DNA from: Acaryochloridaceae cyanobacterium VAR_48_metabat_390
Lineage (GTDB): Bacteria > Cyanobacteriota > Cyanobacteriia > Thermosynechococcales > Thermosynechococcaceae
Direction: 5' to 3'
Length of the DNA: 64,000 nucleotides
Assembly: GCA_031422435.1 (NCBI GenBank)
Contig: JANPLU010000101.1
Location: 20,562-84,561 of the forward strand
The position numbers are program-made. Shown here in pieces: positions 45,301 through 60,300 of this stretch; within the stretch, counting starts at the first letter, position 1, and each line of letters begins with the position of its first letter.

Positions 45301-48300
45301 ACGGTGCCCACTATCAGCAGTCTAAGAGCCAAAATTGAAACGATTCGGGAGCAGGAATTAGAGAAAGCGCTGTCTCGATTGGGGACTGAATTTGCTGATA
45401 AGCACCAAGAGGTGATTGAAGCGCTGACGCGGGGCATTGTGAATAAAATTTTGCATGACCCGATGGTGCAGCTTCGAGCGCAGCAGGACATTGAAGCACG
45501 GCAACGCGCGATGCAGTCACTTCAGATGCTGTTTAACTTAAACCCTGCCTCAACTCAAATTCAGCCCTAATTGTGGTTAGGGAATTTTTGAGAAATCACC
45601 TAGACTCCGGCATACGGCTCAAAATGTCGCTGGATTTCTGCTGTTGTAGGCAAAAGAACCCACAATCATGGAGCCAATTCCTGCATCCGTAAAGATTTCT
45701 AAAAGGAGTGCATGGGGTACACGACCATCAATAACGTGGGCGGCACGAACGCCTTGAGCCAGCGATCGCACGCAGCAGCCTACTTTCGGTATCATCCCCC
45801 CCGACACTACACCCGACTGGATCAATTCACGAGCCTGGGTAATATCCATTTGGGGAATGAGCGTAGAAGGGTCATGGAAATCTTCCATAATCCCAGGGGT
45901 ATCTGTCAGCAAAATTAGCTTTTCAGCCCCTAGGGCAGCAGCAATTTCTCCTGCAACCGTATCGGCATTGATGTTATATGCCTGACCCGTTTCATCAGTG
46001 GCAACCGTAGACACCACAGGAATATAGCCATTATCTGCCAGGGTTGCAATAAGGTCTTCATTGATGCTGGTGACTTCCCCCACAAAGCCGATGTCTTCAG
46101 ACCCTTCGGGACGCGCCAGAATCAGATTAGCATCTTTGCCACAAACCCCCACTGCAGAGCCGCCTGCCTGGTTAATGAGCGACACCAGTTCTTTATTAAC
46201 CCGACCCACCAGAACCATCTCTACAACGTCCATCGTATCGGCATCGGTCACGCGCAGACCGTTTATAAATTGCGGCTCAATGCCCAGCTTGCCCAGCCAG
46301 TGATTAATCTCTGGTCCACCGCCATGCACCACCACGGGGCGAATGCCCACGCAGGCCATAAACACAATATCGCTAATGACCTGAGCTTTGAGGGCGCTAT
46401 CTTTCATGGCGGCTCCTCCGTACTTCACCACGATGGTTTTGCCGACAAATGCCTGAATGTAGGGCAGTGCCTCACTCAGAACCTGAACGCGATCGTTATT
46501 GTTGAGATTGTTGGGCATGGATGGGGATGGGGTTGGGCTGGAGTATTGCAATCATTATTCTATATCGGGACTGCTTGGCTCGAATTTTACCTGTCGGTAT
46601 AGATCGGCGATCGCAATTTCTACGCCTACCGATTCAAGCTTTAAGCGATCATCCAGCGCATATTCTGACAATACCCATTGACCTGCCTCATTGCGCCGAA
46701 ACACCTCCACTCCTGGCTGCTCAACCTGCACCAAGATGTACTCTTGAAGTGCCGTAAACTTACGGTAATGAGCAAACTTAATGCCCCGATCAATGGCCTC
46801 AGTAGAAGGCGATAGTATCTCAATAATCAAACACGGAAACTGGACAAATCTGGGGTCTTTATCGCGTTCATCACAGGTGACAACGACATCTGGGTAAAAG
46901 AATTTTCGTCCCATCTCCACTTGAACTTTGACATCTACCATGTAGACTTCGCACGGTCGGTCCATTAAGACATCGTCTAAAAGCTTTGAAACATTAAGGG
47001 AAATTCGGTTATGGTTGCGAGTCGCCCCCGACATTGCGACGACTTCACCATCCCAATATTCATAGCGCTCTTCTTGGGTGGGTTCCCAATCGAGATATTC
47101 CTCAACGGTCATCATCAATCGATCCGATAGCGCAACCATAGGTCAATCAGAATAGATGGCTCTTTTCTAGAATAGCGGATAGATAACCCCCATTTCGTGC
47201 CTTACGGACGCTTGGTTTAGAGCAACTGTCCTTTAGTTAATACCCCTAAAAAATGCCCATCTGTGCTGTTGAAAGCCCAGATGGGCACATCACATTCTGC
47301 TGCTCAAAATAGAAGGACTATACCTTGAGTACCCAAGCCTCGCGATTCTCTGCATTCACAAAAGAGGCTGGCACTACGGGAATCTTCACGCCCAAAGAAA
47401 CAAACGCAGCTCGAATGGCGGTTGCATGAGCGGATTCTGTGCTGCCAATGCTGGCTCCAGCGCTAATTAAAGCTGGGGTTTTAAGTTTAGCGACCTCTTG
47501 GGTGTAGGCGATCGCCGCATCGATTTCCAGCGCCAGCGCCAATTTTGCAATGTTGACATCACTGTCTACATTGCCTTCACCATTTTTGATGTAGGAAGAC
47601 ACATCGTAGCTAGATTCCGCCTTTACAGGGCTTCCGCCTAGGCTGCTGATTGCAGAGGTTAAGAGGTCGCGGTGCTGTTTGTGGTCGGCTTGGTTGGCGA
47701 GGGAGATCGCCAAGACGGCTTTACCCACATCCGTATTAGTCAGCTTGCCAGCGGCAAAGCTGTAGGCCCAAATGGCCTGATGCTCATAGAACAATGCATT
47801 GTTGAGAATCCCCAGTTAGATAACTTTACAGCTAACCCCTATAGTTTGGGATTCGTTTGTTAGTGAACCATGCCCATGAAGCCGTCGCCATCGCCGCGAT
47901 GATGCCCGTCACCTTTGGATAAACGCCGCACGAACTAAGCGCCCCACTGACCGAAGCCACAAAACCGAAAACCGAGGTGAGTCTATCCGTGTTCATTGGT
48001 CATCCTGCCAAACAGAAACGTAAACATCGCCTTGCTCTACCAACGGTAGAATCTTGTCCCTCAAGTGGACATTGTGCAGCCTGAGACAGCCGAGCGTATT
48101 GAAAAGCTTTTGTAGCAATGCCCAAGCAAGAGGCCATCCGCAAGCCGTACCACCGCCGTGCATCATTAGACCAGCGCGAAAATTGCCGTCCTCATTGCCC
48201 TCAAGGTCGATAAGGTCAAAGCTGTACCATCCGTACTGCATGAGGGTGCGTTCATAGTTCGGGGAGCTGCCCACATCCTCATAGTCGCGGTAGACCTGCC

Positions 48301-57300: not shown

Positions 57301-60300
57301 AGAAGTTGAATGCGTTGCTTTTGCTGCTCAACTTCATTCTGCAACCTAGCCAACCGCAAACGCTCCTCTTCTAGCAGTTGGCTAATGACTCCCCCATTAT
57401 TTGGGCTTGCTGTGGAGTGGCATTCCCGATCATGCCCCTCGCGTATCTCTCTATCAATTCTGATCTGCTCAGTCCCTCTTGAACTGCTCTTTCGTCCAGA
57501 CTCTGAATGCTCAGCTCGGTTAGGGAGATGTTTAATCGTTTCTTTGGTTCTTCGTATGAACCGTGCTTTACTCCGGTCTTTCTTTGAGCCATTTCTTTTT
57601 TCCATAGTTGGTTCATACACAAGATATTAACTGAACTCTTACACAACTACCATTACATTATTGCGCATTCTTACACAAGATGTTACCTTTGGGTGGCATC
57701 TTGTGTAAGAAATAATTGTTCTGATGAAACAACTCACCGTTCGTTACCAGCCTGACTCTGTTGAAGCGTTCTATGAAGGAAAAATTCTTTATCGCTGGTC
57801 AAACCCTGTGTTTGCAAGACAGCAGATAGCCGAGATCCAGCTCAAGGGCTGGACAATCATCCGAGAGGGCGTATGACCGACAACTTCTATAGAGATATGT
57901 GCTTGCTGCTCTTTACAGCCCTAGACATGGCTTCAGAAGAAATTGCTACCGACCGCGAAGACCAGGACAGGTTCAGAAGTCTTTACATCATTAAGGCTTC
58001 TACGTTTCTCAAAAGTGATGAGAGCCTTTCCTACCGCGCTCAATGCCTTGAACATCTCAGACAACAACACAGACAGGAGCTATTGAAGAGTGTTTATAAG
58101 ACTTCCAGGCAATCGAATCATCAATCTGGCGAGAGTGAATCAAATCACCTATAGCTTTGACCTAAGTGAAGTCACCATCTTCTGGGCAACGGGTGATTGT
58201 GAACTTCATTTAGTTAAAGGAGATGCGATCGCATCTCCTTTACGCCATAGACAGGCTGAATGACCATCGTAAGCAGCAGCTCATTGACGTGCAGCAGTTC
58301 GTAGACCCCCATGCAAACGCTGAAACGGTTTTGTATGGAAGCGAATCACTTTTCTAAAAACCCGCCTGATGAGTCTTAAATAGACGAAACTTTCCCAACG
58401 TTGGGAAAGTCGCGGGTACCCTTCCAAAAGGTACCAGCCCTAAATGCGATCGCTAATCGGGCTTAGTTGAGAATTGGCCTTGAATTATCGGGCTTTCAAA
58501 ATTCACGGCCTTGAATGCGATCGCGTTTAGTAGAGCTTTGTCGGTTCTCACAGTGAATAGGCCACGCATTAGGCGGGCTTCGGGAGATTCTATGAACCGT
58601 ATGGCAAGGCTTAACCGCCGAGCAAGCTTAAGTTTGGAACCCAACTCCTAGGACAAAAGCGAAAGCAAATATGCGAATTTTGGGACTCGACGTGTGTCGT
58701 GGCTCCGTTGTGGGCTGCTTATTTACAGAACTTCCAGATAACTGCTTAGGCTGGTTTAGAGCCAATAAACAATCCATTGAGAGCTACGAATCGACTCGTG
58801 AAGACGTTGAAAGACTGCTGGCACTGAAGCCAGACATGGTGATTCTAGAACCCACGGGCGTACACTACGCACGGCTTTGGGCAGACCATCTCATTAAAGC
58901 CGGAGTGATTGTGCGTTGGATTGGGCACGCACAACTAAAGTACGAACGCCTTACCCTGCGAATGCCCAATAAGAACGACGCGGCTGATGCCTGTGTGATG
59001 GCCTACTACGGGCACAAACATCTTTTAGAGCCTGAATACTTCCTCAAGTTCGATATTCATGGGGTCGCTGCATCCATGCGATCGCTCGGTTTGCAGCTCA
59101 AACACCTCAACAGTCAAAGCACCATCCTGACCAATCGAATCAGACAGAACCTAGCCCATGAATGGCCTGAAGTTCATCGGTATCAAACCACGGGGCATAA
59201 TGACACAACCCCGCCACTATGGCGCTACATCGCAGGGGGTAAGGTCGCAAAGATAACCAATACCAAATATTCAAAATCTCTGGGCAACACCATCGGCAGT
59301 GGTCTTTCTGAGTTCACCATTGACCACGCGATCGCACTCACTGAAAATGAAGCCCGTCAGATCAAGATTGAAAAGATGCTCTTTCATCTGGTCTACAGCC
59401 CTGACTTCGAGATGTATAACGAAGCCTTTGACCTGTTTGGTTTTGGCTTGCGGGTTCGGGCAATGGTGCTGAGTCATATTTTCCCAATCGAGAGCTTTCT
59501 AGGGGCTGATGATAAGCCTATCGTGCAATACGTTGACTCCACTGGAGTGAGGAAAAAGAGTAAACGCGATCGCAGTTTAGCCGCCTTTAAGCTGGCCTGC
59601 GGGATGGGCATGATTGAGGATAGTTCAGGGGATAAAGAAGTCTTTAAAGCTGGAGGTTCTGCTCTAGTGCGGGTGGCGCTGTGGCAATGGTGCTTTACGC
59701 ATCTAGAAGCCTATGGCGGTAAGAGAGCAACCGATAGCGAAGTCTGTAAAAAGCTGGTGACGTTCCTGCATACGAGAAAGTCTGCTAGTGGTTCACGGAT
59801 TCGGGTTGTACGATCTGCAACGGTGGCGCGGGCAACTGAGATGTTATTTAAGGAACTGGTCAAGAGGATTTAATCCGGTTTTATCATCTGCCCACCAAAA
59901 AGCCACCGTCTCTCAATCGGTGGCTTTTTGGTGAGTTTGGAAGATAGGAAAGGCTATGCAGGCCTGGTAACGATCTACTACAGTGAATTTTGACATCGTT
60001 CTGTTTAGAAGGGGTCGCAGCATCCGCCCGACCTGCCAGCAGCGGTAAGCCCAGCGCACTCACAATGCCGCCTGCGACCCCAGCCATACTCCCCGTCACC
60101 AAAACATCGCGGCGGGAAACACCCTTGCGTCGAGGACGGTCTAGGTCGTAGTTATATTCGTTCATGAATGCGTGTCTCCTAATCCTTAGTAAATCGGCTG
60201 ACTGAGTTTAATTCAGCAGGTTTTAAGCAAGTCCAGCAGTGGCACAAGACAAAACGGTGGACAACTGCTGATGCTCTATAGAGATATACGCAGTTAGCCG

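Follow-up and report, generated by a model that had tools for sequence, protein, structure and literature searches.

A mobile virus-like element of cyanobacteria with a conserved late operon and a putatively RNA-guided IS110 integrase

The window analyzed here, a stretch of 64,000 nucleotides from the genome of an Acaryochloridaceae cyanobacterium, carries an element that probably represents a temperate cyanobacterial virus, small and tailless. Sequence analysis established its exact ends and an empty site, revealed a late operon that is conserved among relatives, and identified an IS110 gene with predicted guides for the host target as well as for the junction formed by the element's two ends. 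A preliminary description had proposed an unrecognized virus family. Its widespread, mobile, and virus-like character was sustained, but autonomy is presumed for a copy without a replication gene, and a recognizable lysin was present in only 6 of 37 relatives.

Boundaries and Mobility

The element occupies positions 47806-59988 of the window and lies inside a ferritin-like host gene, with a repeated GAAT core at both ends. The attL core (47806..47809, + strand) and the attR core (59985..59988, + strand) are exact ends, and the left end, GAA-TCCCCA, is common to three other elements. The target site is a TAT-ferritin-like gene on the - strand, split into a 3′ half (47318..47805; Ferritin_2, E 2.6e-17) and a 5′ half with a TAT-like signal (59989..60165), which give an open frame of 222 aa when read over the empty site. 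This gene was whole at all five congener loci fetched, one of them judged over 15 nt only, and the empty site itself was present in run X4. With these ends, the whole host gene in relatives, and the empty site, the earlier claim of a real mobile element at 47806..59988 was borne out. No tRNA was found at the integration site.

A doubled depth of the element, also claimed earlier, was seen in run X1 (14.6, versus 7.3 and 10.3 for the flanks), but in run X2 the element reached only 8.9 versus 6.7 and 7.1, which is 1.3 times the flanks. In both runs, the element formed one unitig that began and ended on the cores. The branch pattern of this unitig would be that expected of a circle; the X1 and X2 data as listed did not include the joint of such a circle.

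The IS110 Recombinase, Its Bridge RNA, and a Hammerhead Ribozyme

An IS110-family bridge recombinase, the putative integrase, is encoded at 58671..59873 on the + strand (NF051857, 398 bits versus a cut-off of 180). The profile of its family matched ISCro4 (E 6e-9) and IS621 (E 5e-8), and residues D7, E60, D103, D106, and S319, which represent the DEDD motif and the catalytic Ser, were invariant in seven sequences. Upstream lies a predicted bridge RNA (58412..58610, +) with a 5′ stem-loop, a target loop, and a donor loop, in which two internal-loop hairpins hold the guides (fold z -3.07). The target-loop guides (58466-58474 and 58496-58504, +) and the donor-loop guides (58550-58558 and 58582-58590, +) were assigned by complementarity to target and donor. 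The four 9-nt guides matched both target and both donor flanks in the right order at 9/9, 9/9, 9/9, and 7/9 positions, and this total of 34/36 was reached in 0 of 5000 shuffles. As the upstream RNA folds like a bridge RNA and its guides match the flanks of both target and donor, the IS110 gene very likely encodes the integrase, and integration is very likely RNA guided. IS110 had previously been regarded as an interchangeable module; the block is indeed found also without IS110, but the apparent role of a bridge RNA–guided integrase with a hammerhead had been missed.

Guides tracked the element ends in five other loci. In a right-end test, 14 of 26 cognate pairs matched versus 19 of 650 crossed pairs, with some of the cognate scores at implausible places. 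In a test of all four guides (at least 30/32), 6 of 17 loci matched versus 0 of 156 crossed pairs, and sizes of 11.1-15.4 kb were predicted for four block-bearing loci; a four-guide match was not found in six block-bearing IS110 loci (L031, L105, L109, L111, L117, and L119). The system would provide an example from nature in which a bridge recombinase mobilizes a genome of 11-15 kb whose ends can be predicted.

Directly 5′ of the bridge RNA is a putative type I hammerhead ribozyme (58360..58417, +; RF00163, E 2.4e-5) with a predicted cut after GUC at 58411. Its score of 32.5 bits is 1.5 under the gathering cut-off of 34, the level at which Rfam gave no match in the element, and it presents a CUGANGA/GAAA/NUH core in a three-stem junction (fold z -4.4). 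Hammerheads were found in 14 of 30 IS110 loci, with stems II and III fully varied and with 13 of the 14 folding as a three-way junction, while the genome background of the pattern was 0.0005 per 600 nt. The remaining 16 loci lacked a hammerhead by the pattern used and contained no other Rfam ribozyme. It is likely that the hammerhead makes the 5′ end of the bridge RNA. A natural pair of hammerhead and bridge RNA was undescribed in the literature searched, which covered few subscription papers. A guide RNA whose 5′ end is supplied by a ribozyme would be directly useful for genome engineering in cyanobacteria.

In the mechanism that we propose, a read-through early transcript would be cut by the hammerhead, freeing the 5′ end of the bridge RNA. 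The IS110 recombinase would excise and insert the whole 12.2-kb circle at the 4-nt core, and altering two of its 9-nt guides would give it a new target. Multimers are probably resolved by a catalytic-domain tyrosine recombinase (55841..56425, +; Phage_integrase, E 2.5e-9). The gene for this putative resolvase contains a frameshift immediately before the catalytic Tyr in the present copy, which the preliminary description had overlooked, and the X3 and X4 strains have one extra base at 56358. A dif-like 11-6-11 repeat at 55698-55725 was rejected, being not conserved in 12 relatives. The early region (56345..58263) encodes a 201-aa DUF1678-like protein, an RHH repressor (57371-57646), and small ORFs; no replication gene was recognized in it.

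The Late Operon

All genes listed in the preliminary description were found in place on the - strand (101, 883, 271, 182, 175, 77, 117, 432, 94, and 181 aa). The core genes had been described as lacking a Pfam or PHROG family, and this also held for NCBIfam with the 101-, 883-, 271-, 182-, 175-, 77-, and 117-aa proteins; the best sub-threshold family match was MukB_hinge (E 0.015), on the 271-aa protein. PDB sequence searches were blank.

The first gene encodes a 101-aa core protein (55337..55642, -) that is present in 15 loci and substituted by a 114-aa family in others. The 883-aa protein (52679..55330, -), a putative spike or DNA-entry protein, has a variable N-terminal part, a Pro-rich linker (collagen in relatives), and a conserved helical C-domain. 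The 271-aa marker (51860..52675, -) was modeled with a helical N-domain and an alpha/beta C-domain (pLDDT 88.5). The 2H phosphoesterase superfamily is characterized by two His-x-Thr/Ser motifs. The C-domain of the marker weakly resembled this fold (YjcG, Z 4.8; Usb1, Z 4.8), at an rmsd of 4.1 with 116 residues aligned and tied with unrelated entries; the invariant columns included no conserved His, and the catalytic His-x-Thr motifs were absent. The best BFVD match of the model had an E of 2.4e-3.

The 182-aa protein (51205..51753, -) is basic (family pI 9.9) and was modeled as an alpha/beta fold (pLDDT 94.2). It is the best candidate for a major capsid or nucleocapsid protein, and its gene has its own promoter-like upstream gap of ~100 nt. 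A conserved palindrome before the gene (51827..51844) is a putative activator or packaging site; its pattern, picked after viewing, occurred in 12 of 41 loci versus 64 of 8200 shuffles. The basic 175-aa paralogue (50675..51202, -) is 40% identical to the 182-aa protein. The two most conserved proteins, of 271 and 182 aa, are thus predicted to be alpha/beta proteins and not jelly rolls. The 182-aa model gave no match to known folds (Z <= 4.8), and HK97 and jelly-roll folds were not among the matches listed for either model, although weak or missing structure matches do not prove a new fold. Matches in the ESM Atlas scored below 0.9 and serve as leads only (271 aa, OspF-like, 0.80; 182 aa, unnamed viral clusters, 0.86). 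No kinship was detectable between the two proteins, and neither internal repeats nor links between proteins of different subgroups were significant.

Next are an acidic 77-aa core protein (50442..50675, -; 87 aa from TTG), found in 24 loci with a family median pI of 4.1, and a beta-rich 117-aa protein (50088..50441, -; family of 9), a candidate vertex or small capsid protein. The 117-aa family has a moderate link to a 155-aa family (hhalign probability 55%, E 1e-4). The fiber of one relative starts with a 117-like domain (E 8e-7); in the present copy, the N-domain of the fiber gave a nonsignificant E of 0.03 with the 117-aa profile. A variant of the virus reading, which shares its probability and which we consider rather unlikely, draws on these proteins: in a diverged portoglobovirus- or FLiP-like virus, the 117/155-aa protein would form a single jelly-roll capsid while the 180-aa protein condenses DNA. 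The beta-rich family is present in nearly all loci, an earlier, unverified model of the ~155-aa family was a jelly roll, and SPV1 and FLiP are described as lacking packaging ATPases (PMC8812541). However, searches of PDB and PHROGs gave no sequence match to the 117/155-aa proteins, the 155-aa form has a C-terminal coiled coil that would be typical of spikes, and it is the 180-aa gene that a promoter-like gap of its own precedes.

The remaining genes encode a 432-aa collagen-repeat fiber (48793..50091, -; Collagen, E 2.7e-8), a putative receptor-binding spike whose tail-fiber PHROG matches are confined to the collagen part; a 94-aa coiled-coil protein (48505..48789, -), holin-like by position only and without a match to the holin-like profiles of relatives; and a 181-aa YkuD-like protein (47993..48538, -), a putative lysin under the cut-off (YkuD, E 2.6e-4). 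Relative L033 has an endolysin (phrog_90, E 1e-30) with a fused YkuD-like domain, whose pairwise link to the 181-aa protein is weak (E 0.01).

Distribution and Relatives

The marker had been reported as widespread in the class (19 of 121 genomes, 14 families), in agreement with the present 39 of 251 genomes in 15 families. Its presence in the phylum was likewise seen, but the reported 25 of 201 genomes became 21, all belonging to the same class. The high diversity of the 180-aa family (708 clusters at 50% identity in the earlier count) was confirmed with 769 clusters. Gene order is strongly conserved, but not in 16 of 16 loci as claimed: the order 883>271 was kept in 34 of 41 loci and the order of five genes in 24 of them. 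Of the cyanobacterial genomes sampled, about one in six contains the element, yet its core genes are unnamed in every library searched. If the virus reading is true, a common virus group, possibly with a new capsid fold, would be invisible to current tools.

Among INPHARED phages, there was no protein match for the 271-aa, 182-aa, 883-aa C-domain, 155-aa, or IS110 proteins, and the 117-aa protein reached E 0.8 only. Scans of IMG/VR, metagenome, and genome contigs were blank but also missed a control protein from such a genome and therefore carry no weight. The family was described nowhere in the texts searched, with incomplete coverage of subscription papers and bioRxiv supplements (e.g., the cluster tables of 10.64898/2026.10.21.760802).

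Relative L045 is a closed circle of 12,160 nt with an intact donor site. Among IS110 loci with at least 10 kb upstream, 8 of 11 carry two or more block genes. Other members have a primase-helicase and a large integrase in place of IS110 or are ParAB plasmids, and relatives encode endolysins, carbohydrate-binding fibers, holin-like proteins, and replication proteins of phage type. Two plasmids, of 37 kb and 15.6 kb, carry the block, and in the 15.6-kb one the genes downstream of the marker have no annotated counterparts; these sizes and missing genes fit poorly with a capsid of fixed size. The block on plasmids, together with the failure to find a capsid fold and the ~100 kb that IS110 elements with cargo reach according to 10.64898/2026.08.14.744561, would suit a particle system or surface/transfer system of non-viral nature that travels as cargo on plasmids and expanded IS110 elements. 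We regard this as highly improbable: the same block occurs with varied integration and replication modules at a near-constant 11-15 kb, endolysins of four families lie at the end of the operon, and the IS110 position is fixed, with a left end common across families.

Capsid, Packaging, and Autonomy

The reported lack of an HK97 capsid, terminase, portal, and ATPase was reproduced in that no such family was recognized. The 21 ORFs of the element gave no Pfam or PHROG match to the terminase or portal of Caudoviricetes, and no ORF of at least 45 aa contains a Walker A motif. No packaging ATPase such as the FtsK-HerA motor of Varidnaviria (Tectiviridae, Corticoviridae, and Halopanivirales) was recognized in the element; a Zot-like morphogenesis ATPase was not found either. 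An ATPase occurs in the early region of three distant loci only. A crude scan of the host genome gave no CRISPR array.

A phage satellite would also lack an ATPase and a known capsid. Such an element would replicate and integrate on its own, borrow the capsid or motor of a helper, and use the block to remodel or decorate the helper's particle. The size of 11-15 kb, the VapE-type primase-helicases and integrases of relatives, and the frequent lack of a lysin are consistent with this. However, a co-oriented block of 7-8 kb with fiber and lysis genes would be large for a satellite, no PHROG match linked it to structural genes of satellites or tailed phages, and the host genome had no Terminase_6N or Phage_capsid match, a search that a lytic helper would escape. 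A satellite is an improbable explanation.

Under the favored reading of a small temperate virus, the basic ~180-aa protein, which is often duplicated and would have its own promoter, might be the main constituent of a shell or nucleocapsid and assemble around the circular genome without the aid of an ATPase. An entry or spike module might consist of the 883-aa and 271-aa proteins, and the 117-aa protein and fiber might form the vertices, with release via lysis. The identification of the ~180-aa protein as the capsid protein is tentative. A lineage beyond the recognized realms, with a ~180-aa capsid of unmatched fold, motorless packaging, and a branch with a retargetable bridge recombinase and a hammerhead-matured guide, is suggested more tentatively still. 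Points against the virus reading include the lack of a clear fold match for two models and, in the present copy, the missing replication gene and broken tyrosine recombinase.

Comparison with Known Systems

The vertex of PRD1 (Tectiviridae) consists of the penton protein P31 and the collagen-linked spike P5. The element similarly encodes a small beta protein and then a collagen fiber, but no double jelly-roll capsid or ATPase like those of PRD1 was recognized in it.

With SPV1 (Portogloboviridae) and FLiP (Finnlakeviridae) (PMC8812541), the element shares a small circular genome, the absence of a packaging ATPase, a presumably tailless form, and possibly a small jelly-roll protein. It differs from them in having no detectable homology, in its two most conserved proteins of predicted alpha/beta fold, in integrating, and in its cyanobacterial hosts.

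Neisseria Nf and Thermus Zuza8, Zuza27, and phiOH16 are inoviruses that integrate by an IS110 transposase (PMC11437467). In these viruses, as in the element, an IS110 gene at the end of the provirus serves, or would serve, as the integrase. Unlike them, the element has neither a Zot-like ATPase nor a recognized HUH Rep, endolysins are present, and INPHARED holds no protein match.

Compared to IS621 and ISCro4 (PMC11208160), the element has the same DEDD and Ser recombinase, a noncoding RNA 5′ of the gene with a 5′ stem-loop, target loop, and donor loop, a short core, and a circular form. There are several differences. First, 12 kb of virus-like genes lie between the left end and the bridge RNA. 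Second, the core is 3-4 nt, and the element is mostly single copy. Third, a putative hammerhead lies at the 5′ end of the RNA, whereas IS621 uses a junction promoter, which here lies 10.6 kb away.

Finally, in the large cargo-bearing IS110 elements of 10.64898/2026.08.14.744561, IS110 moves many kb, some of it phage derived; the words "prophage," "capsid," and "cyanobacter" are absent from the part of that text that was available. The present element resembles them in this capacity, but its cargo is one conserved operon that is also found without IS110.

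Ends and Mobility of the Element

The element is real, widespread and mobile. It starts with a left GAAT core (47806–47809), ends with a right GAAT core (59985–59988) and splits a TAT-ferritin-like host gene, in which the empty site restores an open frame of 222 codons. The host gene was uninterrupted in all five fetched congener loci, in one of them by only 15 nt. The genes of the preliminary description were present at the places that it named, and Pfam, PHROG and NCBIfam assigned none of the seven core proteins to a family. Its evidence for mobility was borne out by an empty site in sequencing run X4. 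Depth in the element was 14.6 versus 7.3 and 10.3 in the flanks in run X1, but only 8.9 versus 6.7 and 7.1 in run X2. In X1 and X2, which are possible source samples of the genome, the element formed one 12,183-nt unitig starting and ending on the cores; such branching would arise if a joined circle were also present, although the circle joint was not among the sequences listed. The genome holds a single copy of the element, and at one other place it has a 14-nt stretch that matches the target site exactly and is unoccupied. Elsewhere in the window lies a 12-kb low-GC island (17000–29000; 28–37% versus about 48%).

Evidence for RNA-Guided Integration

Several sequence comparisons argue strongly that the element is integrated by an IS110 recombinase guided by its bridge RNA, a well-supported reading. 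The 400-aa gene (58671–59873, + strand) was identified as an IS110 recombinase by its match to NF051857 and by profile matches to ISCro4 and IS621, and its DEDD and Ser residues are invariant. In the stretch preceding it (58412–58610), the RNA forms a pair of internal-loop hairpins (fold z −3.07), and four loop 9-mers match left target plus core (9/9), core plus right target (9/9), left donor plus core (9/9) and core plus right donor (7/9), a four-guide match reproduced by none of 5000 shuffles. The guide order is the same as that described for the IS621 bridge RNA (PMC11208160, in part).

Among homologues, the guides track the element ends. The right-end guide test was positive for 14 of 26 cognate versus 19 of 650 crossed pairs, with some cognate scores probably due to chance. 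All four guides matched in 6 of 17 cognate versus 0 of 156 crossed cases, two of the 17 loci being without upstream DNA; in six of the loci that carry the block, this test found no clear match. Four of the six matching loci bracket the gene block, with predicted sizes of 11.1–15.4 kb and a common left end, GAA-TCCCCA, and the other two (3.3 and 6.9 kb) are without the block. Elements of 3.3–6.9 kb at loci L113 and L104 have the same IS110 gene and bridge RNA and no virion block between their predicted ends; they are possibly reduced derivatives or satellites. Where 10 kb or more lay upstream of IS110 (11 loci), at least two block genes were found in eight, six of them from genomes already marker-positive. 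One relative, L045, is circularly closed at 12,160 nt and contains an intact donor. The small tyrosine recombinase, which probably resolves multimers, is frameshifted in the window copy and has an intact frame in the strains of runs X3 and X4.

A Hammerhead Ribozyme Upstream of the Bridge RNA

Directly upstream of the bridge RNA is a type I hammerhead (58360–58417, + strand; RF00163, E 2.4e-5, 32.5 bits against a cut-off of 34). Of 30 IS110 loci, 14 have the same core ahead of the recombinase gene, in 13 distinct sequences, where stems II and III are altered throughout but still paired, and 13 of the 14 fold into a three-way junction; the background rate was six matches in 7.4 Mb. The predicted cut would make a conserved 5′ stem-loop the first part of the bridge RNA. 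In IS621, a junction promoter drives the bridge RNA (PMC11208160, in part), whereas the junction of the element is 10.6 kb distant from its RNA. Because of this distance, the hammerhead is proposed to release the bridge RNA from an early transcript, and ribozyme processing likely sets its 5′ end. The other 16 loci lack the hammerhead and have other hairpins. In six of the hammerhead-negative loci (L074, L085, L086, L087, L090 and L095), the 5′ stem-loop is preceded by a nested hairpin of another kind that is conserved; it has no Rfam match and is possibly another processing signal.

The Gene Block and Its Relatives

The 271-aa marker was matched in 39 of 251 class genomes (15 families) and in 21 of 201 phylum genomes, every one in the same class. 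Forty of 47 marker places were fetched, giving 41 loci with the window. The 883-aa gene precedes the 271-aa gene on one strand in 34 of these, and the order 883, 271, 180, 77 and beta protein is kept in 24, as judged with profiles built from these same loci. The flanking modules differ: some loci combine a large integrase with replication genes (VapE, toprim/AAA or Prim-Pol), others a small tyrosine recombinase with IS110. In Nostocales HT-58-2, the marker lies on two circular plasmids of 37 kb (whole block) and 15.6 kb (part of the block), whose cargo includes a 1664-aa MACPF-domain protein, NB-ARC and STAND-WD40 proteins and a restriction-modification pair (L121:9827–14821; L122:2464–4728, 24524–28609). 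Lysins of four kinds were recognized in 6 of 37 relatives, and none could be named in the others (131 ORFs scanned). In the window, two near-perfect 20-bp inverted repeats (57215–57259 and 57668–57711) on either side of the RHH and 122-aa genes are candidate operators, terminators or an origin.

In the 271-aa model (pLDDT 88.5), a helical N-domain is followed by an alpha/beta C-domain. Its best structural matches are weak (Z ≤ 5.5), several being 2H phosphoesterases over residues 92–263, and the family has no conserved His. In a distant subgroup (L118:8001–19083, L107, L068–L070), a protein of about 500 aa fuses the C-domain to a helical region of membrane type. This subgroup also encodes a 570-aa linker protein, a 197-aa basic protein with internal repeats and an all-beta protein of 278–321 aa, a capsid candidate worth folding. 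Linkers in the 883-aa family are Pro-rich or collagen, and the helical end is conserved.

The 182-aa model (pLDDT 94.2) shows an alpha/beta fold that includes a long hairpin, and no structure clearly matches it (Z ≤ 4.8, E ≥ 0.23). Neither an HK97 nor a jelly-roll fold was among the matches listed for this model or the 271-aa one. This protein is a candidate capsid protein since it is basic with an Arg/Lys-rich start, its gene is often duplicated, and this gene alone among the core genes is preceded by a gap of 49–130 nt (in 21 of 23), which holds a conserved palindrome. The 117-aa protein is moderately linked to the 155-aa family. A capsid outside the known lineages may be tentatively considered.

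Comparison with Known Systems

No Walker A motif occurs in any element ORF of at least 45 aa, and in having no recognizable ATPase the element differs from tailed phages, from inoviruses and from tailless viruses with an FtsK-type motor. A P-loop ATPase with motifs of the FtsK/HerA type lies in the early region of three loci (L107:2751–3962, L070:5757–7082 and L034:18311–19813); Pfam gives only weak AAA matches.

The literature searched contained no description of the element family, and the consulted passages of a 2026 survey that covers bridge RNAs and hammerheads draw no connection between the two (10.64898/2026.10.21.760802). The element is probably an autonomous tailless virus. Several of its features have known counterparts. 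First, IS110 is already known as a phage integrase in inoviruses (PMC11437467, in part), and large cargo-bearing IS110 elements have been described (10.64898/2026.08.14.744561, in part). Second, SPV1 and FLiP are tailless viruses that do without a packaging motor (PMC8812541, in part).
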